Origin: Endomicrobiales bacterium
Lineage (GTDB): Bacteria; Elusimicrobiota; Endomicrobiia; Endomicrobiales; JALOBY01
NCBI GenBank assembly: GCA_963796955.1
Contig: CAWCNJ010000004.1
Location: forward strand, 128,001-192,000
Length of the DNA: 64,000 nucleotides
Direction: 5' to 3'
Below the pieces are notes generated by a model. That model was not told where the DNA came from. It saw only the letters and a list, made by a program, of their open reading frames with translations, and made no database searches. Both the position numbers and the translations under genes were made by a program. Positions 46,177-64,000 of the stretch are shown piece by piece; position 1 is the first letter of the stretch; each line of letters begins with the position of its first letter.

Positions 46177-46204
46177 TTGAAAAAAAAATGAATTCTGCTA
46201 TGAT
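46177..46204 (+). promoter_or_regulatory. Candidate sigma70 promoter P1 for the riboswitch-led operon
   Basis: TTGAAA-16 nt (includes an A run)-TATGAT with extended TG. Confidence 0.55.
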
Positions 46205-46308: not shown

Positions 46309-46397
46309 TGACGATAAAGGCAAACCAGATGAAAGTCTGGGGCGCAAAACCACGGGGCTTAAGATAGGGGCTATCTACGCCAGCCGGGTTACCGAAG
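46309..46397 (+). ncRNA. c-di-GMP-I (GEMM) riboswitch aptamer 1
   Basis: CGATAAAGGCAAACC-AGAT-GAAA-GTCT-GG-GGCGCAAAACCACGG...AGCCGGGTTACCGAA matches the class-I pattern; G at the G20-equivalent position. Confidence 0.9.
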
Positions 46398-46543: not shown

Positions 46544-46702
46544 TTCCGACAAAGGCAAACCCGGTGAAAGCCGGGGACGCAAAGCCGCCTCGCATGATGC
46601 GAGGGTTCTACCCGAAAGGCGGGTGGAATACGGGTCTAAAACGACAGTCCGAAGTCCGAAGTCCGGAGTCCGGAGCATCGTTAAGACGGCCGGGTTACCG
46701 AA
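46544..46702 (+). ncRNA. c-di-GMP-I (GEMM) riboswitch aptamer 2, expanded variant
   Basis: CGACAAAGGCAAACC-CGGT-GAAA-GCCG-GGGACGCAAAGCC-[43 nt]-ACGGGTCTAAA...AAGACGGCCGGGTTACCGAA. Confidence 0.85.
46646..46673 (+). repeat. 4 x heptamer AGTCCG(A/G) in the P3 apical loop of aptamer 2
   Basis: AGTCCGA AGTCCGA AGTCCGG AGTCCGG. Confidence 0.9.
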
Positions 46703-46879: not shown

Positions 46880-47275
46880 ATGAAAACACGGTTCGCGATG
46901 AAAATGATGCTGTTGACGATCGGCCTGCTGCTGAACAGCTGGGGCGCCCCCCGTTTCACGGCCCAGCTCACGCAGCCGCTTGTTGTCAGCGTCACCAATT
47001 ACCCGAACCCGTTCGACAGCCGCTGCGAGAGGACCACCATCCTGCTCTCGCTGGCGCAGGAATCGCAGGTAAGCATTTCCATCTACGATCTGCTGGGTAA
47101 CATGGTGCGGCAGTTCCCTTCGATGAGCGAGGATGCCGGCACCACCAGCATTGTCTGGGATGGGACGAACGATGACAAGGAGAAAGTGGCAAAAGGCGGA
47201 TATCTGGTGCTGGTCGTGGCCAATAGTGAGGCCGGTACATCCCAGGTAATACGAAAGGTCGGCGTTTTGCATTAG
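46880..47275 (+). CDS. Signal peptide + stand-alone T9SS/FlgD-Ig-like CTD protein
   Basis: GGAG RBS; TNYPNPF...IYDLLGNMVR...WDGTNDDKEKVAKGGY...IRKVGVLH*. Confidence 0.85.
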   Translation: MKTRFAMKMMLLTIGLLLNSWGAPRFTAQLTQPLVVSVTNYPNPFDSRCERTTILLSLAQESQVSISIYDLLGNMVRQFPSMSEDAGTTSIVWDGTNDDKEKVAKGGYLVLVVANSEAGTSQVIRKVGVLH

Positions 47276-47285
47276 TGACAAAAAA

Positions 47286-48923
47286 ATGAAAAAGAAACTG
47301 GCAACCACCAATCTCATAGCGATCTTCAAGTCTCTGGCCTGCTGCGCCAAAGCGCTTGTGGTGGTTTGCGTTGTTCTCTTCGGACTTCTGATTTCGGACT
47401 CTGGACTGGTGTATGCCGACAACACCGGCGGCCAGGCTGGCCAGTTCCTTGCCTGGGGCGCCGGAGCCCGTTCTCTGGGGATGGGCGCGGCCTTCTTCGC
47501 TGTAGCTAATGACGCATCGGCAACATACTGGAACCCCGCCGGGCTGCCGCAGCTGGACCGCAAGGAGCTTATGGCGCTGCACGTAACGTTGTTCGCCGAT
47601 ACGACCTACGATTTTATTTCTTACGTACATCCGACGCCGAACCTGGGCGTTTTCGGTATAAACCTGACCCGTTTATATTCCACGGGATTTGAAAAAGTTA
47701 ACATCACGTTTGATTCCACAAAGACCGACATCGTCGACATTCAAAGCATGGGAACATTTGATGATTCCCAGACCGCCCTTACCCTGGCGTACGGCAAGAA
47801 TATCCGCGACGGCATTGCGATCGGCGGTTCGTTCAAGTATATAACCCACACGCTGGATACCTCAACGAACGGATTCGCTACCTTCGACGTAACATCGCTG
47901 GTGACCGGCGTAACTTCGGCGCTGCCGGACATGAAGATGGCCTTCGGCATAAACAACATCATGAGCAGCGCTTTCGGCGACACGGAAGACAAACTGCCGA
48001 TGATACTTCGCGCAGGCATTTCGCAGCCGTTCCTGAAGAACAAGCTGCTGCTTGCGGCCGATATGAACAAAGGCATGAGCTCGGACATGGAGTGGCACCT
48101 GGGCACCGAATACTGGCTGCTGAATTTCGCAGCATTGCGCGTGGGCTTTAAAGGCCAGCAGGGCATCAGCGAAACAACGGCCGGATTCGGTCTGAGATAC
48201 CGCGATTACGGATTTGACTATTCTTTCGGGCTGACGGATCTGGGTATGTCGCAGCGGGTGAGCGGTTCCTGGCGCTTCGGCCTCTCCGTGAACCAGAACA
48301 AGGAAGCCCTGGTTCGCCGCTACATTCAGGAAGGCATGGAAGCATACACCAAGGGTAATTTCCTTCTTGCGCTGAATCGCATGGAAGCGGCTCTTGACAT
48401 AGACCCGTCCAACAAGGACGTCCAGAAAATGTCTAAACGTCTGCAGATGGTCATAGGCTTTATACCGTCCGCCAAAGCTGAGAACGAGGAAGAGACGGCT
48501 ATCCGCAAGGGTGTGGCCGCCTTCACCGAGAACGATGACAAGGGCGCCATAAACGCCTTGCGCTACGCCTATTACAAGAACCCCGCGAACCTGAAAGTGC
48601 TGCACCTGTTGAACGCTATGGAAAAAGAAATGGGTATCAGTATCACACCGGTATATAAGGAAGAGGCGGCCGGCTTTACCATGCTGGATCAGAAAATTTA
48701 TGATGCGCGCCAGGCTATTATTGAAGGTAAATATGATCAGGCGCTGATCAAGTGCCAGGATATAATGAACCTGGAGCCGGAAAACGTGACCGCACTTGAA
48801 ATGATGGGTTCTGCCTTCTTCATGATGGACCAGCCGGAAAAGGCGAAGCAGGTATGGATGAAAGTGCTTGAGATAGATCCGTCGAACAAGGTGGTACCTG
48901 AGTTCCTTAATCAGTTGAAGTAA
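47286..48923 (+). CDS. PorV/PorQ-family beta-barrel fused to C-terminal TPR repeats
   Basis: FLAWGAGARSLGMGAA...NDASATYWNPAGL; barrel ends ...DYSF...QRVSGSWRF; then about 200 aa of TPR-like helices (ALDIDPSN, LEPEN, LEIDPSN). Confidence 0.87.
   Translation: MKKKLATTNLIAIFKSLACCAKALVVVCVVLFGLLISDSGLVYADNTGGQAGQFLAWGAGARSLGMGAAFFAVANDASATYWNPAGLPQLDRKELMALHVTLFADTTYDFISYVHPTPNLGVFGINLTRLYSTGFEKVNITFDSTKTDIVDIQSMGTFDDSQTALTLAYGKNIRDGIAIGGSFKYITHTLDTSTNGFATFDVTSLVTGVTSALPDMKMAFGINNIMSSAFGDTEDKLPMILRAGISQPFLKNKLLLAADMNKGMSSDMEWHLGTEYWLLNFAALRVGFKGQQGISETTAGFGLRYRDYGFDYSFGLTDLGMSQRVSGSWRFGLSVNQNKEALVRRYIQEGMEAYTKGNFLLALNRMEAALDIDPSNKDVQKMSKRLQMVIGFIPSAKAENEEETAIRKGVAAFTENDDKGAINALRYAYYKNPANLKVLHLLNAMEKEMGISITPVYKEEAAGFTMLDQKIYDARQAIIEGKYDQALIKCQDIMNLEPENVTALEMMGSAFFMMDQPEKAKQVWMKVLEIDPSNKVVPEFLNQLK
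47379..47408 (+). repeat. 4 degenerate heptamers (TTCGGAC-like) inside a signal-peptide coding region
   Basis: TTCGGAC TTCTGAT TTCGGAC TCTGGAC; reverse complement of the aptamer-2 loop repeat. Confidence 0.75.
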
Positions 48924-50843: not shown

Positions 50844-50866
50844 AAGTTACTTTGGGAGACCAAAAA

Positions 50867-53800
50867 ATGGACATCTTTAAAAACAAAAAACCGGCTGAAG
50901 GGACCAACCCCCAGGTGGAGACGCCACGGATGGCAGAGCCCCAGCCGCCAACCGCGCAGCCGCCCGTTCCGGTGATTTCCGACAGCCAGGCTATGGCCGA
51001 GGCCAGGGCCCGCGCGCGTGAACAGTTGAACCTTATGGAGCAAAAGATCGCTCAGGAGCGCGAAGCCTGGTCGCATAAAGTCAAGGAAAAGGCCGAAGAG
51101 CAGGTTTCCTGCAACGCGAAGCTGGATATGCTGGTAAATCGTATCGCTCTTGAACGCGAGCGCCATGAAGCGGAGCTTGTCCTTATGCAGCAGAGCATCG
51201 ACAACGATCTTAAGTCTATCGACGCGGCGCTGGAAGCTGAGACCGCAAAATGGACGGAGCGCCTTTCGTTGAAGGATAAGGATATTGAAGATGCCAGGCA
51301 CCGCTCGGCCTTTGAAGAGACCCAGAAGAAAATAGAGTCTGAACAATCCCTGCGCGCTCTTAAAGTTGAAAAAGACGCGCTGGAACAAAAATTCAAAAGC
51401 CTGCAGCGCTCCATGCTGGAAGAACAAAATAAGTGGCTCGGCCAGATACGGCTGAAAGAAGAAGAGATCGTAAACCTTAAAACACAGATCGCGTTGCACG
51501 AAGAACAGATGAAAACCGACGAAGAAAAGAACACGTTGACCAGGAAGGAGTCGGAAGAAAACTGGCATACGCAGATAAAGGAGCTGGAGGAGCGCCTGGA
51601 TACCCAGCGCACCGACTGGACCCGCGTGCTCGCGAAAAAAGAAGAAGAGCTTTCAGCCATCAAAACAACGCTGGAGCAAAAACTTTCCACCCTTGCGATA
51701 GAGACCGAGCGCAAAGAGAACGATATCCGCCTTCTCAAGACCCGCATGGAAGAACGCATCAAGGCCGCCGAAGAATCCCTGAACGGAGAGAACGCGCGCT
51801 GGCAGCAGCTGCTGGGAGAACGCGATGAGGAGTTTAAAAAACTGCGCGTGGAGCTGATGCTGCGCGACAGTCAGGAAAAAACCGAACGCCAGAAAAAATA
51901 TCAGGACCTTAAAGACGCCGAATCCACCGCCTCCCGCCGGATCCGCGAGGCGAAACAAAAACTGGAAGATGAAAAACAGGTCTGGCAAAAGCGTATAAAC
52001 GATAAAGATGAAGAGCTGAAGAACCTCAAGATCCAGGCCGAGCTTAAGCTGAAAGATATCCAGGACGACCGGGCACTCCGGCAGCGCCGCGCTGAGGAAG
52101 AAAAATCAGCGCTCTCAGCCACGCTCGCAAGCTTGCAGGAAAAACTTGAAGAAGAACGCGTTACTCTGCAAAAAAGCGTTGCGGAAAAAGACGCGGAGAT
52201 AGAAACCTGCCAGCAGCAGTGGCAAAATACGCACGATGCGATGACCCGGGAAGGCGAAGCTCACATCAAAGAGCTGCGGGCGCAAAAAGACAGTTATGAA
52301 AGAGAAGTGCTTGCCCTGGAAGCCCAGCTGGCCCAGGAAAAACAGAAATGGAATACATTGATTCAGGAAAAGGACAAGCAGCTCTCTGTCGCGCGCGCCG
52401 AATATAACGCCAGAGAAGCGCTGGTGCACCAGGAACTGAATATACTGGAAGAACAGTTGCGCAAAGAGCAGCAGCCGCTGCTGCGACAGGTGCACGATAT
52501 TGAAGGAAAAGTAGGGGAATTGCAGCGCGCCGCCCAGATAGAGATATCGCACCGCGAGACCCAGAAAAAATCGTTACAGGATCAATTTCAACGCCGCGAA
52601 GAGAATCTGCGCCAGCGCCTGAATATTCAAATAGAGAAGATCAAGGATTCGGAAAATTCTCTCGCGGGCCGTGTTGCCGAAATAAAGGCGCATATGGACG
52701 CGCAGGGAAAAGAGGCGCAGTCAAGGCTTGAGGCTCTCGAAGAAGAAGGACGTCTGATCTCCGGACAGATGTCGCAGGAACATGAGCGGATAGAGGCTGA
52801 GAAAGCCAAGTTGTCTGAAAAATATTTGTCTGCCAAACTGGAACTTGAAGAGAGTATTAAAAAACTGGAAAACGAATACGACCTGATGCATACGACCTTG
52901 CAAGCTGAAATAGAGGAAAAGACCTCGGAACTTGCCGGCGAAGAGACCCGTCTGCACGCTGCCGAAGAAAGGATCGCAAAAGAAACAGCACAGCGCGAAA
53001 AAGAGTTCGCGGACCTTAAGGCCCGCGGCGACAGCCAGCTGGCGCAGCTGAGCGGCGAACTGGAAGCGCTTAAGAAACGCAATGACACCGATATACGTTC
53101 CCAGGTCGCCCAGCTGGAACTGCTGCGGCGCCAGGGCGCGGCGCGTGAGCAGGAGATGGCGGCGGATATAGAGGTCATCAGGCAGAACTCCGAGTCGGAA
53201 TTGAAACCCATGGCGGACCGCAAGGAGCAGCTGCGCTCACAGCTGGATTCCCTGCGCGCGCAGTCACAGACGAAACTGAAAGCCATCGACGGGCGCATTA
53301 GCGCGCTTCGGGCGCAGCATGACGCTATCGAAAAAGAATTCCTGGGCAGAAAGAACGTCGTCACGGAATCAATAAACGGTGTACAACGTGACAGTGAAGG
53401 AAAACTCCGCGCGCTTCAAAACGAACGCACGGAGCTGGAAGCTGCGTTTGCCCGCGAAATGTTGTTGAAGGAAGAAGAATTCTCAGCTCTCGAAAAAGAA
53501 GTGAACGGGCATGTGCAATTATTACAGCAAAAGAAGGATGCGGAGCGCGAAGAAGCCCGTATGCAGATGGAAAGCATGCGCGCCGACATAGACAAACTGT
53601 ATGAAGAAGTCTCGCGGGTTGAGACGGAATACCCGGAAATACTGGCCACGCGCCAGGAAGAACTGGTTTCTCTTGAAAAACAGGTCAATGAACGCGCGCA
53701 ATATTATCAGAAACAAACCCTTCAGGCGGAAAAATCGCTTGAGAATTATCAGCGTCGGGCCGAAAGCCGCATAGAGACCGTCCGGACGCAGCTGGACCAG

Positions 53801-55753
53801 ATGGTGGCGCGCCATAAGACAGAACTGTCCGTGCTGGAAGCGAAAATAACGGCGGTAAAGAAACAAACGGAAGAAAAAGAGAAGGCGCTCAACGACGAAC
53901 AGAACCGCGAAGGCCGCGTCTTCGTGGATGAAAAATACCGTCTGGAAAAACAGAAGGCCGAGCTGGAAGAAAAATTGAAAGATGTGACCTTCACTTCACG
54001 CGATCAGATAGGGAAAAAGGAAAAAGAGATCTCCGCCCTGCAGCTGGACCTGGCCGCCAAAGAACGCCTGTGGGAAGAGGCATGGCAGAAGAAGGAAATG
54101 GAGTTGGAAGCCGAGCGCGTCGTGCTGACCAGGGAGCAGGAAAGCCTTGAAGTCCGCCTGAAGAACGAGGAACAGATCTCTTCCAGCCGTCTGGCCCAGA
54201 AAGAGAACGAGATACATCAATATATGGCGCAGGCGGAGACACGGCTTAAGGCCCTTGAAGCCGACATCGAAGCTAAACGCGGCGCCTGGGACGAATCTAA
54301 AAAAGCGCTGGTAGAACAAATAACCGCCCATGAAGCGACGCTTGCGACACTGCAGCAGAATTGGCGCGAGAGCATGGCACGCAAGGACAAAGAACATACC
54401 GCGTTGAAGTCCAACCTCGAGTTCTGGGAACTGCGCACCAAGACCGAAGAAGAAAAACGCATGGCGGACTGGGAGAAGGAAAAATTCTCCCTGGAAGAGA
54501 AAGTAAAACACGTTACGGAGCAGATCTCTTCGCTGCAGTACGATTCAGCGGCCAAACTGGCCGAACGTGAAAAACAGCTTAACTCCGACAAAGAATCGGC
54601 ACGGCTGGCGGAGGAATCATCCGCCGCGCAGTGGCGTGAGACCGAGACGATGCTGAGCGGCCAGCGCGATTCCCTGATGCAGGAAGTTTCATCGTGGGAA
54701 AAGAAGATCAAGGACGAGACCGCGCAATATGAAAAGGAAAGCCGGGAGCTGGACAAGGATATTGAAAAACTGAAGCTGGAAAGCGCCCTGAAAGATGCCG
54801 GCATCCAGGCGAGTCGCCACAAACTTGAACGCGACTGGTTCAAGGCGCTGCGCCGGCTGGAAGGGCAGCTGGAGACCGTGAGCCGCCGTTACATCGAAGA
54901 AAAAGATTCCTGGACGGGTAAGATCCACCTGATCGAGGAAGAGATAAATACCTTCAAGGTGCGTCTTGGCATGCGCGAAGACCGCCGCCAGGCCGAGATC
55001 ACACGGCGCCAGGATGAACTGCGCAAGATAATCAACGAACTGGAGAACGAAGTGAAGGGTATGTACGCCAGATACAGCGACGCGGTGCTCGGCAAGAAGG
55101 AGTGGGTGACCAAGCGCAGCCAGCAGCTGGCAGAGCTTCGTGCCCAGCTGGCCGAGAAAGAAACCGTATGGCAGCGCGAGCAGTCGGCGAAAGAAGCTTC
55201 GCTGACCGGTGTCTTCGAGCAGTTCGGCTCCGATCTGTCGGACATGGAAAAGTCGCTGAAGGAAGAAACCGGTAAATTCGAAAAGCTGCTGGGACTGAAA
55301 CAGAAACAATTACAGAATATTATGGCGCAGATGGCCGGCAAGGAAGAGGAGCTGGTGCGCGAGCGTGAATTCAGTCAGAACACCTTAAGCAAATTGCATA
55401 CGAAAGCCGCGGAATTCAAGCAGCAGATAGAAGCTGAGTTGCGGGCTTTGTCGGCGGGCAAACAGGAACAGCGCTCCCATGTGCATATTTTTGACGAGGC
55501 GATGGAGCTGTACTCTCAACAGAACTTTGGCGCCGCCCTTGAACGGCTGGAAGCCCTGGTGAGCCAGCATCCGCGTTTCCCCGGCGCCCTGCAATATATG
55601 GCGCTGTGCAGCTTCGAACAGGGAAAACTTGCCGAGGCGGTGCAGTTCGCCGAACGGGCCTTCGAGCTCGACGGCAGCAATGAGTCTCTCAAGGAATGGA
55701 TACTACAACTCAAACAAGCGGCACGTTCACATATATCAGATTCTAATAATTAA
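50867..55753 (+). CDS. Very long cytoplasmic coiled-coil protein (24 x 61-aa period) with C-terminal TPR
   Basis: GGAG RBS before ATG 50867; Pro-rich head; E/K/Q/R/L-rich rod; no signal peptide, TM helix or Walker A; FDEAMELY...ALQYMALC...AFELDGSN TPR tail. Confidence 0.88.
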   Translation: MDIFKNKKPAEGTNPQVETPRMAEPQPPTAQPPVPVISDSQAMAEARARAREQLNLMEQKIAQEREAWSHKVKEKAEEQVSCNAKLDMLVNRIALERERHEAELVLMQQSIDNDLKSIDAALEAETAKWTERLSLKDKDIEDARHRSAFEETQKKIESEQSLRALKVEKDALEQKFKSLQRSMLEEQNKWLGQIRLKEEEIVNLKTQIALHEEQMKTDEEKNTLTRKESEENWHTQIKELEERLDTQRTDWTRVLAKKEEELSAIKTTLEQKLSTLAIETERKENDIRLLKTRMEERIKAAEESLNGENARWQQLLGERDEEFKKLRVELMLRDSQEKTERQKKYQDLKDAESTASRRIREAKQKLEDEKQVWQKRINDKDEELKNLKIQAELKLKDIQDDRALRQRRAEEEKSALSATLASLQEKLEEERVTLQKSVAEKDAEIETCQQQWQNTHDAMTREGEAHIKELRAQKDSYEREVLALEAQLAQEKQKWNTLIQEKDKQLSVARAEYNAREALVHQELNILEEQLRKEQQPLLRQVHDIEGKVGELQRAAQIEISHRETQKKSLQDQFQRREENLRQRLNIQIEKIKDSENSLAGRVAEIKAHMDAQGKEAQSRLEALEEEGRLISGQMSQEHERIEAEKAKLSEKYLSAKLELEESIKKLENEYDLMHTTLQAEIEEKTSELAGEETRLHAAEERIAKETAQREKEFADLKARGDSQLAQLSGELEALKKRNDTDIRSQVAQLELLRRQGAAREQEMAADIEVIRQNSESELKPMADRKEQLRSQLDSLRAQSQTKLKAIDGRISALRAQHDAIEKEFLGRKNVVTESINGVQRDSEGKLRALQNERTELEAAFAREMLLKEEEFSALEKEVNGHVQLLQQKKDAEREEARMQMESMRADIDKLYEEVSRVETEYPEILATRQEELVSLEKQVNERAQYYQKQTLQAEKSLENYQRRAESRIETVRTQLDQMVARHKTELSVLEAKITAVKKQTEEKEKALNDEQNREGRVFVDEKYRLEKQKAELEEKLKDVTFTSRDQIGKKEKEISALQLDLAAKERLWEEAWQKKEMELEAERVVLTREQESLEVRLKNEEQISSSRLAQKENEIHQYMAQAETRLKALEADIEAKRGAWDESKKALVEQITAHEATLATLQQNWRESMARKDKEHTALKSNLEFWELRTKTEEEKRMADWEKEKFSLEEKVKHVTEQISSLQYDSAAKLAEREKQLNSDKESARLAEESSAAQWRETETMLSGQRDSLMQEVSSWEKKIKDETAQYEKESRELDKDIEKLKLESALKDAGIQASRHKLERDWFKALRRLEGQLETVSRRYIEEKDSWTGKIHLIEEEINTFKVRLGMREDRRQAEITRRQDELRKIINELENEVKGMYARYSDAVLGKKEWVTKRSQQLAELRAQLAEKETVWQREQSAKEASLTGVFEQFGSDLSDMEKSLKEETGKFEKLLGLKQKQLQNIMAQMAGKEEELVREREFSQNTLSKLHTKAAEFKQQIEAELRALSAGKQEQRSHVHIFDEAMELYSQQNFGAALERLEALVSQHPRFPGALQYMALCSFEQGKLAEAVQFAERAFELDGSNESLKEWILQLKQAARSHISDSNN

Positions 55754-55775: not shown

Positions 55776-58700
55776 ATGGCCGACGAAAAGTTACCAAAAG
55801 TTCCACCGTTACCGCCCGCAAGACCAGCCGGGAGCGGACCAACCCCGCCGAAGCCGCCTATGCCGGGGGCCGGTGCCAACCCGCCCGCGGTGAAACCGGC
55901 GTTGCCGGGTAAGCCCGCGATAAATCCGGCGGCGGCGCCGCGCCCTATGCCCGGGCAGGCGGCTCGTCCTCCTGTGAACACCCAAACCCAGCGAAACGTA
56001 ACGCCGGCCCAGCCGTCCACCGGCTATTCTGAGGTTGACGATGCCCGCAACGCGCTGGAAGGCCAGATAAACGAACTGCAAAAACAACTGCAGTCCGAAC
56101 GCGAGAAGCTGCTGCTGCAGACCGTGCGCGCAAAGAAGAAGAAGCGATGTCGGCCAAAGTTGAAGAATCGATCAAGGATATTCAGGAACGTGTCCGCCGG
56201 GAAAAACGCGATCAGGAATTGCAGGAATCGCTGGCGAAGGCCGAAGCGTACAATAAAGAGATGGAGGCGCGCCTTGCCGCCGAGCGCCAGACCTGGGTGG
56301 AGACCCTTAAAACGCAGATCGGCCAGAAAGATTCGCAGGAAAAAGAAGTGGAATACCAGTTCGAGCTGCGCATGAAGGAGCTGGAACGCCGCTGGCATGA
56401 GGAAAAACTCGCCTGGTCGCAGGCCATCAAAGCGAAAGACGAAGAGGTGATACGTCTGCACCGTGAAAAAGAGAGCGCGGTAGGCGAAGAGCGCGCAGCT
56501 TCCGAGAAACGGGTAACCGAACTTACCCGGGAACGCGAGTCCCTGCAGCGTGAGCTGATCGATGTACGCGATGTACGCCAGGAAGAGCGCAGCTCGCTTC
56601 TGGAAAAACTTGAGGGCCGCGATAAGGAGTTCATGGGCCTGAAGGCCCAGCAGGCGATGCTGGTGACCCAGGTGCGCGAAGCTAAAGACAAACAGGACCA
56701 GATGCGCCAGCTGCTGGAAAAATTCCGCGCTGAAAAAGAGAACCTGCATTCGCTGCTGGAAAATAAGGATAAAGAGTTCTACCTGTTCAAAACGCAGTTC
56801 GCCCTCTACCAGACCCGCTCAAAATCGGAGCAGGAAAAGCTGCTTAAGGAACTGGTATTGTTCAAAGATCAGATGGGCAAGGACGCGCAGCAATATTCCA
56901 GCGTCCTGCGCGCCAAAGAAGAAGAGATGAACCTGCTGCGTCGCGCTAACGAAGGCAGGGAAAGCGAGATCCGTAACCAGTTGGAAAAGAAAGAACAGGA
57001 AGTCGCCTCAACGGCGGCGCAATACGAGGCTCGCATAAAAACGCGCGAAGCCGAACTGCGTTACGAACTGGAACGCAAGGAAACGGAACTTAAAGGTCAG
57101 ATAGTCCATATTGAAGAACAGGTCAGAGCGCGCGTCGGTGAAATTGAGAACCTGAAAGAACGTCATACCGAGCAGCTGCGCGCCAGGGACGGCGATATAA
57201 AGAGCGCGGCGGAAAAACTGGCGGCTATGCAGGTGGAAGTTGCCGTTGCCAGACAAAATACACAGTCCGCCGAACAGCGTATGGCGCTTGCACAATCAGA
57301 GGCTGCCAGGCTCAAGGAGATCATAGAAGAAAAAGAAGTTGACGCGGCTTCCGCACAGGCACAGTTCACCGCCCGCCTTGAGCAGGCTGCTTCCGAAGTG
57401 CGTCAGGCGACCGAACGCGAACAGGCGCTGCGCCTTGAGCTGGCTGTCGCCCGGCAGAACATGCAGGTTTTTGAAACCCGCATAGCAGCGGCGCAGTCGG
57501 AAGTTGCCGGGCTTAAAGAAGTGATCGCGAGAAAAGACGCTGAAGCTTCTGAGCGCCAATCGGAGTTCAGCTCACGCCTGGAGCAGGCGGCATCGCAGCT
57601 GCGCTCCGTGCAGGAACGGGAGCAGACGCTGAAAGTAGAACTGGCTTCTGCGGCCGCCGTGCGCCATGATCTTGAAAAAGCGGTGGAGAGAGAACACGAG
57701 GAAGCGGAGCGCCAAAAAGCTCAGATCGTTGAAAATGAAAATCTTTACCGGAACGGCTTATCCCAGAAAGATACGGTCATCAGCGCCAAAGAACTTGAAC
57801 TTGCCGGCATGCGTGAAACAATAGCGGCTCTTCGTATGGAACTGGTTAAAAACGAAAGTATGCAGCGCGAGCTTACCGTGGCGAATGACCGTCTTGACGT
57901 GGCATTATCCCAGGCAAACGCGGCCTTAAGCGATCGCGATATGCGCCTCGCCAGGGCCGGCGACAGGGAGAAGGGCCTTGCTGATACTATCAACGAACAT
58001 GTCAATGAATTGTCCGCTGTCCGCGCAAGCCTTGCCGCGGTTGAAAATGAAGCGGCCGCGTTGCGCGGCGCGATAACCGAACGGGACGGCCGGATAAAGG
58101 AAGGCGACCGCAAGGAAGACGAACTGCGCGCTCAACTCCTTTCGAAAGAAGGTGAGATCAACACCCTGCGCGAGACGATGCAGCAGCGCGAGGCGATGCT
58201 GGTGACGGTGCAGACCCAGGCCGAACGCCGCGAGAACGACATGAAGATCGCCTTCGCCCAGCGTGATGCCGAACTGAACAACCGCTGCGCGGCCCTTGAG
58301 GCGACGCTGGTTGAGAAAGACCGTTTCCTCGCCGGTTCCGCCGAAAAAGAACGCGCCTTATCGAACGCCCTGGCGAAAGAAGAGGAAAAAGTTTCCGAGC
58401 AGCTGGAACACGTGAGGGAACTTGTTTCAAGAGAGAACGAGCTCAAGATGTCTCTTAACCAGAAAGAGAACGCGTATGCCGCTGAACGCGCCGCGATAGA
58501 ATCGCGCATAGCGGAGCGCGACCGCCAGCTTACCCAGCAGGCGCAGGCGTTTGAGGCTGAGCGCAGAAAATACGAAGAAGCCGTCTCACGGGCGGAACGT
58601 TCATTGCAGGAAGCTTCAGCGGCCGCTCAGCTGCAGCTTGCCTCCCGTGAAAAAGAGATCGAACGCCTTAACAGCGCGGTAGCGGCCGCCCAGCATGCGG

Positions 58701-59848
58701 TCAATGCCGCCAAACAGGAAAACGCCCTGCATGAGCAGGAATTGCAGCTGGGCGCAAAACAGCGCGAAGCCGCTCTGCTTATTGATATAACCAACGCCCG
58801 GGAAAAAGCTAAGAAGGCCGAGCAGGTCCTCAGCGATTCTCAGCGTCAGCACCAGCATCTGCTGCTGTCACAGGAACAGAACGCGATGCAGCGCGAGGCG
58901 GCGTTGAGCGCGGAAAAGAACGCGGCAAAAGAGCTTCTGGCCGGCCTGAAAGCCGATAACGATACCCTGCGGCGCGAAGGCGAAAAAATGCTCGCCGAAG
59001 TGAACGCCAGTCAGCATCGCATGAACGAGGTAAAGGAATTATACGAGCGGCAGCTGAGAGCCAAGGAAGAAGATCTGGCCCAAATTAAGGCGAACAGGCT
59101 GGCGTTCGAAGACTCTGTGCGCCACCAGATCAATGAAGAATACCGCCGGCATCTGGAAGGGGTGCAGAGGGAAAAGCAGGACGGCGAACGCGCCTTCATG
59201 AACCAGATACAGACCCTGAGGGACACCATGCGTACCGACCTGCTGCACGTGCAGGAAACCATGACCCGCGACCACTCGCAGCTGGAACGCCAGCTGCAGG
59301 AAAAAGAGGCCCGGCTGCACGAACTCCAGCAGGCTTTAAAAGACGAAGCATTACGCGAGCAGGAACAGAAAACCGCCCTGGACAAGAATGTTGAGAGGGT
59401 GCGGGAAGAATACAAGGCATTGCTTGCAGAAGAAACAAGAAAACATGAAATGGAGCGCGATGTAATAGCGCGCAATACCAAGCATATAGACGATGAGTGT
59501 TCTTCGCTGCGCCAGAGAGCAGAGGGGCTAGCCTTTCAATTAAAACAGGCGAATGATACCCTGCAGGGGAAAAATAAGGAAGTCATGACCCTTCAGGAAA
59601 ATCTTGACACCCTGACCATTCAAAACAGGAAGCAGGCACAGTATTCTTCTAACGATGCCGCCGCGAAAACGGCTAAATTCGGCCCGGAAGACACCGTTAT
59701 ACTTGAGCCGCATGTTCCCCAGCCGCAGATCCAGCAGCCGGCGCCAGCAAAGCAGCGTAAACCGCTGATAGGCCGTATCTGGGATAATTTGAACGAACCC
59801 GTCATAGAGATCGGCGGAGATAACATGAAGAAGAAAGACCATGAATAA
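55776..59848 (+). CDS. Long coiled-coil protein with Pro-rich N-terminus (one apparent frameshift at ~56131)
   Basis: GGGAGG RBS before ATG 55776; adding one base at CGCGC^AAAGAAGAAGAA joins ORF 55776..56375 to 56147..59848 as ...TVRAKEEEAMSAK... Confidence 0.82.
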
Positions 59849-60529: not shown

Positions 60530-63500
60530 ATGGGTCGATCGAGTAACTATTTATTCATTGCCCTTATCTTGTTGCTGGCCGGCTTTGTCGTTGCGTGGGC
60601 TGCGCCCGCTCCCGTCGGCGACCTTGCCGCTTCGTCGGCAGGCTATCGCCATATTACCCTGACCTGGAGCACGCCGTACGATGCGGCGGCTTCCACCACG
60701 CCTGCGTATTACGATCTGCGCTGCTCGACCACGACCCCCATTATAACGGCCGCGGACTGGAATAACTGCCCCTCTTCTCCGGTCTACCCCTATAATATTG
60801 TTTTCACAACGCAGGGTGTTTCAGCCGGCAGCCCTGTCTCGTTTTCGGTGACCGGGCTTACGAACGGCCGCACCTATTTCTTCGCCATCAAGTCTTCCAC
60901 CGATAATATTTCCTGGTCGGCGCTTGATACGTCGAGCCCTGAACCCTTTAATACTCCCTTCAATACGGTACCCTACACCCTTCAATCATACGATTTCCCG
61001 GCTGCCCGTTCTGAGGTCTATACTTCAACCCCCACGTTGACGTGGCACAGCGATACGGTAACGCCGGGTTCCGACGACAGCGTCTGGGGTGATTCCATAG
61101 TTACCTATACCGTTGAATTATCAACAGATGTTTCATTTGGTTTCCATTCATCCGAAGATGTTTCCATACCTTCTTATACCACATATCCGCTTGCTGAAAA
61201 TACCACGTATTACTGGCGTGTGCGACCGCACGACAGCGAGGGGCTTCAATCTGCCGGTTTCCTTGATCAGACGGACCGCTGGTTCATGGTCAATGCGAAA
61301 AAAGACGCGCCAACTCCCTTCAACCTGCTATTGCCGGCGAACCTGGATATCATCAACAACAATACGCCGTCCCTGCAATGGTCGGCCTCTACCTGCGCCG
61401 ATCCCATGCCGGAAGGCATTGTCTCGTATACCGTCCAGTACAGCACCAGCCCTACCTTCAATATTGTGTGCACCACCACGGTCGCGGCCCTGGCGGGATC
61501 TCCCTACGCGGTGCCGTCGGCCTTGATCGAGAATGCGCACTATTTCTGGCGGGTATACGCGGTCTCCGGCTCCGGTGTTTCAACGATGTCATCTTCCACC
61601 GGCACCTTTTGGGTCAATGCCATACATACGGGGCCCGGCATATTCGCGCCTGCCGGACCGCCAAACGCGTCGATCGTGCGGCTTTCCACGCCAACTATTT
61701 CCTGGAGCCCTTCGGCCGACCCGGATCCCGGCTCAGCGGTCGTTTATAACGTCATATATTCTTCCACCGATATTACGTTGAGCATGGATTATCACGTCAT
61801 CTCAGGCATTGGCACTACCTGGTATGTTCTGCCGCCGCTGCAGGACGGTGTTGTTTACTGGTGGCAGGTGCAGTCTGATGACGGGGCCGGCGGCCAGTAT
61901 CAAAGCACAGAATGGTCATTTTCCGTGCATGCGGTTAATGCGCCACCAACGCCGTTCGATCTGCTCAGCGCTTCAGGAACGGTCGCGACACTTAAACCTG
62001 CATTTTCCTGGCAGGCCGCCACTGACCCCGAGGGCGACGCCTTCTCCTATACAGTGCAATACACGACGACTGATTTCTCCGCGGCGGTTTCCTCAGCCGG
62101 GTTGCATGTCGCTTCTTTTACGCCGGCCGTTAATCTTACGGAAAATGCACAATATCTGTGGCGTGTGATGTCCGTAGACAGTTTCGGCGCGCAGCGTATG
62201 TCGAACCAGACCTGGCCGTTGGCTATAAATGCCAACCCCGAGCCGCCGCTGCCGTTCTCGCTTGTTTCACCGGCTGATCAGGCCCAGATAAGTTATCTTG
62301 CTCCTACGCTTATCTGGCAGGCGACAACCGATCCGGACCCGGGCGATTCTATCGCCGGTTATACCGTCAGATATTCGACTGCTCCCGATCTGAGCAATGC
62401 GGTTTCCGTAGCAGGAATTTCTGTCACCTCCTATACCGTCACGCCGCCGCTCACCGCGAACACCACCTATTTCTGGAGCGTGCGTGCGGTTGCCACGCAG
62501 AGCGGCCAGACGGACGCAGCGGCGATCCGCAGTTTTTTCGCGGTGAACCAGCCGCCGCTGGCCTTCTCGCTGCTCGCTCCTTCGGGCATCATTGCCACAC
62601 GCACGCCCACGCTTAACTGGCAGGCCGCGCCGGATCCGGAAGGCGATGCCGTAACCTACACGGTCCGCTACGCAACGAATGCGGCATTTGCCGGCGCCGT
62701 GTCGGTGTCCGGTATAACGAACAATTATTACACGACCCCCGCGCTGATAGAAGACGCCAGCTATTACTGGAAAGTTGATGCCGTCGATGTATGGGGGCAT
62801 GTGCGTAACTCAACGAACGTTCTGCCGATCGCCATTAACAGCATTGATTCACCCCCGGCGGTATTCGTCTTGATCTCCCCACCTGACGGCACGGTATGCG
62901 GGGTACGCCCTGTATTTTCCTGGCAGGCCTCATCGGATACCGATCCGGGCGACAGAGTTTCCTATGAGTTATGGTACTCCACTTCGCCGGTCTTTGCCTT
63001 TAAAACGGTGGTAGCTTCTCTTCCGGGAACCTCGTACACAACCGTCCAAAGCCTTATACCCGGCACGACCGTATACTGGAAAGTCAGCGCCCTGGACAAC
63101 GCCGGCAACCGTACGATGACAACCGCCTGGCGGACGTACATCTCTCAGGCAGAGCCGCCGGAGACACCCGCAAATTTTACCGCCATGTCCTCGGCTGATG
63201 GTCGCACGATCACGCTTACCTGGCAGGCGCCGGGTGCGAACGCCGATGGCTCAGCGTTGACACCTCTTGATGGTTTCTGTATTTACCGCGCCTACGATCT
63301 TAACGGCGTGCTGGCCTCAGTAACGCCTCTTATTATCCCTGCTGGCATGACCTCGTATACCGAGCAAATAGCCGCCGGCCAGACCGTGTATTATCAAGTG
63401 AGCGCAAGGAATATCCTTGGCGGTGAAAGCACCCGGTCCCGCGCTGTTTCAGCCGGCGCGCAGGGAGAACTTTTAAGCTACACGAATGATTGCGATCTGA

Positions 63501-64000
63501 TACTTTCGTGCCCGCCAAATGTGGTCCCCTCGTCCTATTCAGTCACGGTAAGCCGCGACGGCGCACTGGAATTCGGGAACGTTTTGCGTCATTATTCCGT
63601 GCACGTCGCTGCCGGCGGCGTCGAGCTGAAAAAATATGTGTTTTCAAAGCCGCTTACCATCTCGCTTAAGACGGACACCGCGATCCAGTCGCCGGCCGCC
63701 CATGCCCCGGTGCAGGCGCAACTCACCACGGGTATTTTCTGGCATAACGGCGTTGAATGGATCTACCTTGGCGGTGAAAACGCTTCCGGCGATATCAGCG
63801 TCAGGGCAAGTTCCGCGGGGGAATATGAATTGCGCGCCGTATCACGTTCATCTGAATTCCACGTTCTCTCTCACTGGCCGGCGATAATTACGCCGAACGG
63901 GGACGCCATCAACGATGAGTTCAACATCACATTTGAAAACCCCATGTCGGACGCGGTCTCCGGCGAGATTTACGACCTCCGGGGCGCGCGTATCGCGGAA
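60530..64000 (+). CDS. Exported FN3-repeat protein with type-B-like (gliding motility-associated, TPNGD) CTD; 3' truncated
   Basis: Not in the ORF track because it has no stop in the window. AGGGG RBS; MGRSSNYLFIALILLLAGFVVAWA signal; FN3, 7 x PxFxW..DPD..YxWxV repeats, FN3; ends IITPNGDAINDEF...GEIYDLRGARIAE in the same frame. Confidence 0.87.
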   Translation, partial: MGRSSNYLFIALILLLAGFVVAWAAPAPVGDLAASSAGYRHITLTWSTPYDAAASTTPAYYDLRCSTTTPIITAADWNNCPSSPVYPYNIVFTTQGVSAGSPVSFSVTGLTNGRTYFFAIKSSTDNISWSALDTSSPEPFNTPFNTVPYTLQSYDFPAARSEVYTSTPTLTWHSDTVTPGSDDSVWGDSIVTYTVELSTDVSFGFHSSEDVSIPSYTTYPLAENTTYYWRVRPHDSEGLQSAGFLDQTDRWFMVNAKKDAPTPFNLLLPANLDIINNNTPSLQWSASTCADPMPEGIVSYTVQYSTSPTFNIVCTTTVAALAGSPYAVPSALIENAHYFWRVYAVSGSGVSTMSSSTGTFWVNAIHTGPGIFAPAGPPNASIVRLSTPTISWSPSADPDPGSAVVYNVIYSSTDITLSMDYHVISGIGTTWYVLPPLQDGVVYWWQVQSDDGAGGQYQSTEWSFSVHAVNAPPTPFDLLSASGTVATLKPAFSWQAATDPEGDAFSYTVQYTTTDFSAAVSSAGLHVASFTPAVNLTENAQYLWRVMSVDSFGAQRMSNQTWPLAINANPEPPLPFSLVSPADQAQISYLAPTLIWQATTDPDPGDSIAGYTVRYSTAPDLSNAVSVAGISVTSYTVTPPLTANTTYFWSVRAVATQSGQTDAAAIRSFFAVNQPPLAFSLLAPSGIIATRTPTLNWQAAPDPEGDAVTYTVRYATNAAFAGAVSVSGITNNYYTTPALIEDASYYWKVDAVDVWGHVRNSTNVLPIAINSIDSPPAVFVLISPPDGTVCGVRPVFSWQASSDTDPGDRVSYELWYSTSPVFAFKTVVASLPGTSYTTVQSLIPGTTVYWKVSALDNAGNRTMTTAWRTYISQAEPPETPANFTAMSSADGRTITLTWQAPGANADGSALTPLDGFCIYRAYDLNGVLASVTPLIIPAGMTSYTEQIAAGQTVYYQVSARNILGGESTRSRAVSAGAQGELLSYTNDCDLILSCPPNVVPSSYSVTVSRDGALEFGNVLRHYSVHVAAGGVELKKYVFSKPLTISLKTDTAIQSPAAHAPVQAQLTTGIFWHNGVEWIYLGGENASGDISVRASSAGEYELRAVSRSSEFHVLSHWPAIITPNGDAINDEFNITFENPMSDAVSGEIYDLRGARIAE

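Follow-up and report, generated by a model that had tools for sequence, protein, structure and literature searches.

The length of a long coiled coil usually drifts in steps of a heptad or a hendecad, and long periods laid over the helix repeat occur in the myosin rod (28 and 196 residues) and tropomyosin (about 39 residues). In Myxococcus gliding, the coiled-coil protein AglZ, which exceeds 1000 residues and carries an N-terminal receiver domain, lies on the cytoplasmic side of an envelope motility machine driven by a motor of the MotAB/TolQR type. In Streptomyces, Scy (more than 1000 residues) and FilP are described, in the available part of one study, as largely non-heptad rods with little supercoiling, thought to be dimeric and built almost entirely of hendecads (3.67 residues per turn) with alanine-rich cores and a DivIVA-like N-terminal domain (PMC9858780). 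Here we describe CC1, a giant rod protein encoded in a 64,000-nucleotide stretch, hereafter the window, of an Endomicrobiales bacterium from the phylum Elusimicrobiota (contig CAWCNJ010000004.1, positions 128,001 to 192,000). Its unit of 61 residues and 17 helical turns is kept without net insertions or deletions over 1464 residues, relatives retain the period at 18–39% identity, and the length of the rod changes only in steps of 244 residues. To our knowledge, no other bacterial protein holds so strict a register.

A preliminary description of the window had drawn attention to 13 aromatic residues recurring every 183 nucleotides. All of them fall in column 1 of a 61-residue stack, the nucleotide coordinates converting exactly (51068 is residue 73): tryptophan at residues 73, 134, 195, 256, 317, 378, 500, 1171 and 1354, phenylalanine at 866 and 1476, and tyrosine at 927 and 1293. 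The autocorrelation that it had proposed as a check returns the same period, the six best lags of the whole protein under BLOSUM62 scoring being 183, 61, 122, 244, 366 and 305. Within residues 73–1536 the value at lag 61 is 0.51, against 0.15 for the highest-scoring lag outside its multiples; 200 shuffles of this segment reached at most −0.20 over lags 1–400, and 200 shuffles preserving the hydrophobic pattern gave 0.109 ± 0.046 at lag 61, with a maximum of 0.23, so the similarity between units goes beyond a common helix pattern. A repeat hidden Markov model places 25 of 25 units in one phase, that is, the 24 units that had been claimed to follow one another without indels and a degenerate N-terminal one. 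The DNA copies had been called diverged, and Tandem Repeats Finder indeed detects no 183-nucleotide repeat in the gene; the protein repeats score 0–80 against one another and about 300 against themselves, and the array is therefore old and diverged. The 61-residue periodicity is thus confirmed as real and as far exceeding chance.

The distribution of the family was assessed by a six-frame search of 401 genomes sampled from Elusimicrobiota, in which CC1 (P0001) found matches in 33 (E ≤ 1e-10) and a profile free of tetratricopeptide repeats (TPR) in 35 (E ≤ 1e-15); two relatives were recovered among 8000 word-sharing candidates that were scored. At 30 of the 33 related loci there is an open reading frame (ORF) of at least 500 amino acids in which three or more of the four strongest autocorrelation lags belong to the set 61, 122, 183 and 244, the other three loci holding a 543-amino-acid end fragment, a short form and a fragment too short for the lag test. 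Phase was analysed in the 26 proteins that possess a TPR anchor. Every detected unit lies in one phase in 12 of these, seven more have nothing off phase except stray hits with equal phase on either side, and the last seven leave the phase within their final five units, with a net slip of −1 or −4 in four and with only the final one or two hits affected in three. As judged from these 26 proteins, homologues do not tolerate arbitrary indels, one of the outcomes on which the preliminary description had staked its case. MAFFT inserts no gap in residues 134–438 and 622–1048 across 17 orthologues of 12–43% identity; the segments were cut in register, so their equal lengths arise by construction, but the ungapped optimum does not. 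In close relatives, repeats pair one to one with their orthologues, and many still do so in distant ones.

A short subfamily of about 890 amino acids (P0042, P0049, P0061 and P0090) begins with a transmembrane helix and then a basic stretch, and lacks a TPR; its 8–11 units keep the 61-residue register, with a seam of 3.584–3.586 residues per turn. By the positive-inside rule, the basic stretch behind the transmembrane helix suggests that the rod of this subfamily is cytoplasmic. In one sampled genome, a relative with an open frame of 617 amino acids shares its contig and strand with a FliG_C hit and lies about 400 nucleotides downstream of it. Four other candidates (P0024, P0034, P0039 and P0089) turned out to be unrelated giant repeat proteins, with periods of 63, 198 and 74 and seams of 3.50–3.54.

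The character of the helix emerges from a repeat profile built from 706 repeats out of 29 family members. Large hydrophobic residues stand at columns 0 (W/Y/F), 4, 11, 14, 18, 25, 29, 32, 36, 43, 47, 50 and 54, where they make up 0.38–0.89 of residues, and four more seam positions (7, 21, 39/40 and 57) are mostly Lys, Arg or Glu. The resulting 17 seam positions per 61 residues comprise ten steps of four and seven of three, which corresponds to the four heptads and three hendecads (61 = 4 × 7 + 3 × 11) already proposed for the unit, and the Fourier spectrum peaks at 61/17. In CC1 the hydrophobic residues give a single narrow maximum at 3.588 residues, which is harmonic 17 of 61, with a power of 24.8 (18–34 in five relatives; maximum 2.06 in 50 shuffles). 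There is no peak at the canonical heptad value of 3.5, the observed period is also distinct from that of hendecads (about 3.67), and with alanine at 0.02–0.09 in the 13 core columns the core is not alanine-rich. Glycine and proline together stay at or below 0.106 in every column of the profile, and core/seam occupancy is 0.67–0.88 for each of the 24 units across 17 orthologues. CC1 thus combines unbroken helix propensity with a coherent seam, as expected of a coiled coil in the wide sense, and its sequence supports an uninterrupted helix whose hydrophobic seam recurs with the period 61/17.

The axial rise of a helix is about 0.148 nm per residue, from which a parallel two-stranded rod would measure 9 nm per unit and about 217 nm for the 24 units. 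In the available part of the Streptomyces rod study, an undistorted helix is given 3.63 residues per turn (PMC9858780). Relative to this value CC1 is offset by −0.04, compared with −0.13 for heptads, and its supercoil is therefore weak and left-handed; one supercoil turn would span roughly 310 residues, an estimate very sensitive to the 3.63 constant.

The similarity found to known proteins lies chiefly at the C-terminal end. The Pfam scan of CC1 yields TPR-type rows and a single sub-threshold ABC_tran_CTD row (E 0.0088, 16.7 bits, cut-off 32), NCBIfam gives no family match, and the ESM Atlas returns TPR clusters only, at 0.86–0.87, under the level that counts. The tail belongs to the TPR proteins, with profile matches to solved members over positions 714–799; among the solved structures, the best 60 of 184 rows match this TPR part and one of them extends further upstream. 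AlphaFold2 (AF2) models the TPR part with five confident helices and a predicted local distance difference test (pLDDT) value of 82–87; over the last 800 residues the mean pLDDT is 60.7, with the rod split into a low-confidence bundle and the TPR alone usable. A Foldseek comparison of the central AF2 model with the PDB gave no match at E ≤ 10. At the other end, the true start is likely the ATG at 50867 (MDIFK...), since homologues begin with MDIFK or MDLFK. CC1 has no signal peptide; its N-terminus reads M-x-[IL]-F-[DK]-K-[IF]-K, ahead of a proline-rich linker, and this short amphipathic motif is a putative membrane tether. A literature search found, among the matches listed, no paper that describes a coiled coil repeating every 61 residues and none that treats FliG/MotA of Elusimicrobia, and the accessible portion of an mBio 2025 stator paper does not mention Elusimicrobia (PMC12505986). 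The rod is accordingly without a Pfam or NCBIfam family, a solved relative or a paper that we could find.

By length, the family falls into discrete classes. The TPR anchor lies at residue 1516–1574 in 20 proteins, at 1768–1779 in five and at 2021 in one, which gives classes of about 24, 28 and 32 units separated by steps close to 244 residues, or 4 × 61; the integer multiples of 61 that the preliminary description had wanted looked for among homologues are thus found, in the particular form of multiples of 4 × 61. P0001 is shorter than P0003 and P0004 by exactly 47 + 60 + 14 + 123 = 244 residues, and in close relatives the additional four or eight units sit in the middle of the rod, after about unit 10. 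Three single prolines are shared throughout the phylum, at unit coordinates 8.69, 12.69 and 15.02 (CC1 residues of about 541, 785 and 928). In four of the five 28-unit proteins examined they stand at 8.69, 12.69, 16.69 and 19.02, and in the 32-unit protein at 8.69, 20.69 and 23.02, so the added piece is a four-unit block between prolines. Two of the conserved prolines thereby lie inside a long helix exactly four units apart, where they may produce kinks. A profile search of a representative set of 1.84 billion proteins, whose matches overlap the 401-genome set and are not independent of it, found matches of at least 1500 amino acids spanning most of the profile at 1533–1637 (12 proteins) and 1851–1860 amino acids (five), with none between; after about rank 25 the matches are dominated by TPR-rich proteins. 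In a quick tree, one 28-unit protein falls within a 24-unit clade, with a value of 100 in the Shimodaira–Hasegawa-like approximate likelihood-ratio test (SH-aLRT), and the remaining proteins of 28 and 32 units belong to a different clade, that of the order from which the window comes; the four-unit gains therefore occurred at least twice.

CC1 belongs to an operon (Table 1), a context not seen in the preliminary description, whose gene order, namely mini-protein, TPR-bearing barrel, FliG-TPR protein, CC1 and a second giant coiled coil, CC2, is kept across families of the phylum. A promoter-like site at 46177–46204 precedes the tandem aptamers for cyclic di-GMP (c-di-GMP), and one or two such aptamers lie just upstream, on the operon strand, at six of the seven related loci examined. 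The mini-protein, which has no part besides its signal peptide and sorting domain, matches small upstream genes of related loci by tblastn and carries an NYPNPF motif; its sorting domain, of the type IX secretion system (T9SS), ends a giant surface protein in some other loci. Among the 30 loci with a called rod gene, a barrel gene of 40–69% identity stands upstream on the same strand in 27, the FliG-TPR gene directly precedes CC1 in 23 (three more are cut by a contig end), and CC2 follows CC1 in 28, the other two being cut by a contig end. The TPR tails of the barrel, the FliG-TPR protein and CC1 are homologous to one another. FliG_C is present in all 33 genomes with CC1 and in 175 of the 401 overall, a purely descriptive comparison since related genomes are not independent. 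CC2 has no coherent long period (Fourier power 2.9–6.5), and its conserved ends, an N-terminus rich in proline and a C-terminal motif of the FWxxLNxP(V/I)IEI type, are candidate TPR ligands. Its two frames in the window (55776–56375 and 56147–59848, plus strand) join in an aag-rich run that homologues read through as one protein, with its start immediately behind CC1, and the split could be an assembly error or a real frameshift.

Table 1. Coordinates in the window of CC1, its parts and the other elements of the operon.
Feature	Position	Strand	Basis and remarks
c-di-GMP-I riboswitch aptamer 1	46309..46396	+	Rfam RF01051, 84 bits (gathering score 35)
c-di-GMP-I riboswitch aptamer 2 (tandem)	46544..46702	+	Rfam RF01051, 45.8 bits
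Mini-protein of ~131 aa, signal peptide and T9SS type A sorting (FlgD-Ig-like) domain	46880..47272	+	TIGR04183 Por_Secre_tail, 29.6 bits (cut-off 23)
PorV/PorQ-family outer-membrane barrel with C-terminal TPR	47286..48923	+	NF033709 PorV_fam, 125.2 bits (cut-off 90); Pfam UPF0164, TPR
FliG-TPR protein: FliF C-terminal ring motif, FliG middle and C-terminal domains, TPR; 627 aa	48960..50843	+	Pfam YscJ_FliF_C, FliG_M, FliG_C (2.6e-27), TPR
CC1 rod protein (P0001)	50852..55753	+	1633 aa counted from TTG 50852
CC1 N-terminal part: amphipathic motif MDIFKNKK, proline-rich linker, degenerate first unit	50867..51067	+	N-termini of 29 family members
CC1 array: 24 units of 61 residues, one register, period 61/17	51068..55459	+	Residues 73–1536
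CC1 C-terminal TPR module	55490..55681	+	Residues 1547–1610; TPR_19 26.6 bits (cut-off 25), also TPR_16
Second giant coiled coil, CC2	55776..59848	+	Two frames meeting near 56125–56140

Taken together, we tentatively favour CC1 as a fixed-length, weakly supercoiled strut or ruler of a FliF/FliG–PorV envelope machine that is controlled by c-di-GMP riboswitches and has not yet been described, a reading whose likelihood we place a little short of even. The rod would lie on the cytoplasmic side of a machine built around the FliF/FliG fusion rotor protein and the PorV-family barrel, with the riboswitches governing the whole. Its amphipathic N-terminus would tether the rod to the inner membrane at one end, a task that the transmembrane helix may take over in the short relatives, and the C-terminal TPR, together with the better-conserved surfaces of units 3, 5, 21 and 22, could bind partners, with the FliG-TPR protein and the conserved peptides at the ends of CC2 as candidates. 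The middle of the rod would then serve as a spacer whose length is altered only by whole blocks of 244 residues. In such a machine, parts of the flagellar rotor appear to be reused together with T9SS-type outer-membrane parts.

Several observations weigh against this reading. Contact between CC1 and the rotor protein is something that we infer, and at four of the 30 loci the FliG-TPR gene lies outside the operon, with the barrel gene directly preceding CC1. The CC1 family was not found, with the queries used, in several large FliG-bearing families of the phylum (0/47, 0/48, 0/11 and 0/10), and in a related genome the FliG-TPR gene lies with MotA/MotB genes and with no giant coiled coil beside it. 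The operon in the window contains no stator genes; the genome holds three FliG_C genes, and its sole FliG-adjacent MotA/MotB genes are on another contig, beside a paralogue. The apparent absence of flagellar genes is itself provisional, FHIPEP (FlhA), Flagellin_N and YscJ_FliF (FliF-N) having no match in the 2.10 Mb of a genome that is 81% complete. The four-unit steps could stem from unequal recombination between units 244 residues apart instead of from selection, since the super-period of 244 residues already present in many 24-unit relatives could bias recombination towards such steps. Charge pairing from g to e', which might tell parallel from antiparallel strands, is barely enriched (1.15, against 0.99 for other i+5 pairs), and the AF2 monomer of residues 622–1048, helical at positions 2–201 and 216–426 of 427, is broken at 823–836 and has a predicted TM-score (pTM) of 0.25. 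A complex prediction for two copies of residues 134–438 with a 17-row alignment scored 0.04 against a mark of 0.42 and counts neither for nor against the reading. Finally, nothing obvious forbids indels of 7 or 11 residues in a parallel in-register homodimer. A simple dimer of this kind does not require the strict period, and some register-dependent contact, within the molecule, between molecules or with a partner, is therefore likely.

One way to supply such a contact would be an antiparallel hairpin, in which the chain folds back at mid-length like an SMC/Rad50 arm, so that the rod would be about 108 nm long and the N-terminal motif would meet the TPR at the same end; we consider it unlikely. 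Pairing between distinct parts of the chain would explain the exact period, and length could change only by units added to both arms at the apex, in keeping with the position of the extra four or eight units in the middle of the 24-unit array and with observed length steps that are all even numbers of units. The AF2 break is the sole one within residues 622–1048 and lies about 25 residues beyond the midpoint, and conservation between orthologues is roughly mirror-symmetric, units 3 and 5 answering to units 21 and 22. Against this model, there is no conserved loop in the middle of the rod, glycine and proline averaging 0.6–1.8 per unit, core occupancy remains 0.70–0.80 through units 12–14 in 17 orthologues, and the 61-residue register passes through without a shift. 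The low pTM of the AF2 model likewise reflects no confident packing of helix on helix, and no SMC/Rad50-type ATPase head, hinge or zinc hook is matched by CC1 in Pfam or NCBIfam.

A register-dependent contact could also lie outside the molecule. Rods set side by side with a stagger of 61 or 244 residues, or laid along a periodic partner, would make up a track, lattice or filament with sites every 9 or 36 nm, a possibility that we rate as unlikely much as we do the hairpin. It would account for a period that stays exact at 18–39% identity although a parallel dimer alone would tolerate indels, for a super-period of 244 residues, which many 24-unit relatives show as their best lag and which is echoed by prolines four units apart, and for the weak supercoil, which leaves equivalent positions on nearly one side of the rod. 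The pattern of conservation runs the other way. On the 61/17 helical wheel, the mean column entropy over the 706 repeats is 3.03 in the core, 3.21 on the flanks and 3.55 on the outer face, the last being the most variable sector; the columns conserved between repeats are those of the core and the flanking e/g-like positions, and the repeat consensus is therefore a structural signature and not a repeated docking site. Nor is there long-period charge zoning in the net-charge profile of CC1, whose harmonics 1 and 2 are the weakest. Between orthologues, outer-face conservation peaks in the four units named above as possible binding surfaces, among which unit 22 bears an arginine-rich surface with invariant R1371 and R1375 that is also present in the short subfamily, and variability is greatest in units 7–14 and 23–24. 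This pattern agrees better with a spacer whose functional parts lie at its ends than with a track offering 24 equivalent sites. Where the preliminary description had proposed a filament, track or ruler with regularly spaced binding sites, the ruler finds support, a length conserved across the phylum fitting a ruler or strut; the regularly spaced sites are not supported, given the variable outer face, the absence of charge zoning and repeats that are strongly diverged within the protein and individually distinct, each with an orthologue of its own elsewhere.

A more ambitious version of the strut is improbable in our view. CC1 would here be a true ruler with a module of 36 nm (244 residues), of which six, seven or eight would dictate how many FliF/FliG rotor rings there are or how far apart they stand, or else how large a cytoplasmic cage is, in a flagellum-free, c-di-GMP-controlled and ion-driven surface machine handling T9SS-type cargo; the 61/17 period would serve to keep every docking surface on the same side of an almost straight rod running along the inner membrane. 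That CC1 is no coiled coil at all and forms a spacer of the single stable α-helix (ER/K) type is very improbable. The sequence abounds in E, K, R and Q, and opposite charges are strongly enriched at i+3 and i+4 (ratios 2.37 and 2.88), so its helices are stabilised individually as well; but ER/K helices have no hydrophobic seam such as runs here through 1464 residues, with a Fourier power 12 times the shuffle maximum. Least probable of all is a general cytoskeletal or chromosome-handling coiled coil whose place in the operon has no functional meaning, in whose favour stand the putative nature of any contact between CC1 and its operon partners and a faint SMC match of CC2 (21.8 bits against a cut-off of 567), but which runs counter to the order of barrel-TPR, FliG-TPR, CC1 and CC2 kept across families of the phylum, to the homologous TPR module that ends three operon proteins and to the position of the operon behind shared riboswitches.

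Beyond the operon, the genome contains two further FliF_C/FliG fusion genes, both without a TPR tail (C6:171302-182817 and C7:3896-8994). Each has a PorV-like barrel-TPR gene nearby and is directly preceded by a gene for a TolB-like propeller with fn3 domains, and the one on contig C6 is followed by MotA and two MotB/OmpA genes. A marginal match to SprA_N of the T9SS translocon (C8:84746-85093, L059), inside an open frame of 1828 amino acids, is a hint of T9SS-type export in the source genome. Downstream of CC2, at 60530–64000 on the plus strand, lies a gene for an fn3 and Rha78A-like immunoglobulin (Ig) protein of more than 1157 amino acids, conserved in this position in eight related loci. 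The left part of the window, 2–38241, is occupied by giant ORFs on the plus strand (1524+, 2503, 2626, 944, 465, 326, 362, 1304 and 2511 amino acids), several with bacterial Ig-like domains and several without a Pfam match, which are probably surface adhesins. Between 40000 and 46200 the G+C content falls to 0.41–0.46, compared with about 0.55–0.58, and this stretch holds a second UPF0164-like barrel gene, a glycosyltransferase-like gene (PMT_2 and TPR) and a gene for an 836-amino-acid protein with a phage tail collar domain.

CC1 offers a natural test case for how the geometry of a rod follows from non-heptad periods and for the reasons why length comes under selection, as well as an entry point to a conserved envelope machine from a phylum whose members are mostly uncultured; a component such as a fixed-length rod ought to stand out in tomograms. 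Set beside the described systems, it resembles Scy and FilP as a very long, non-heptad bacterial rod with little supercoiling, and differs from them in its period of 3.588, in a core that is poor in alanine and bears an aromatic residue at column 0, in the lack of a DivIVA match (Pfam, E ≤ 0.01), in its TPR end, and in phylum and genomic context; the 51-residue repeat of Scy cited in the preliminary description does not appear in the available part of the Streptomyces study. In contrast to AglZ, it has no receiver domain, and no sequence relationship between the two was found. With the myosin rod and tropomyosin it shares a long period laid over the helix repeat, together with a super-period; these proteins, however, are built on heptads (3.5) and carry the long period in their surface charges, whereas that of CC1 resides in the pattern of the core, with no zoning of charge. 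As in the coiled-coil rulers of WbdD and WbbB, the length of the coiled coil appears to be selected, although in CC1 the rod carries no enzyme domain and its length moves in steps of 244 residues.

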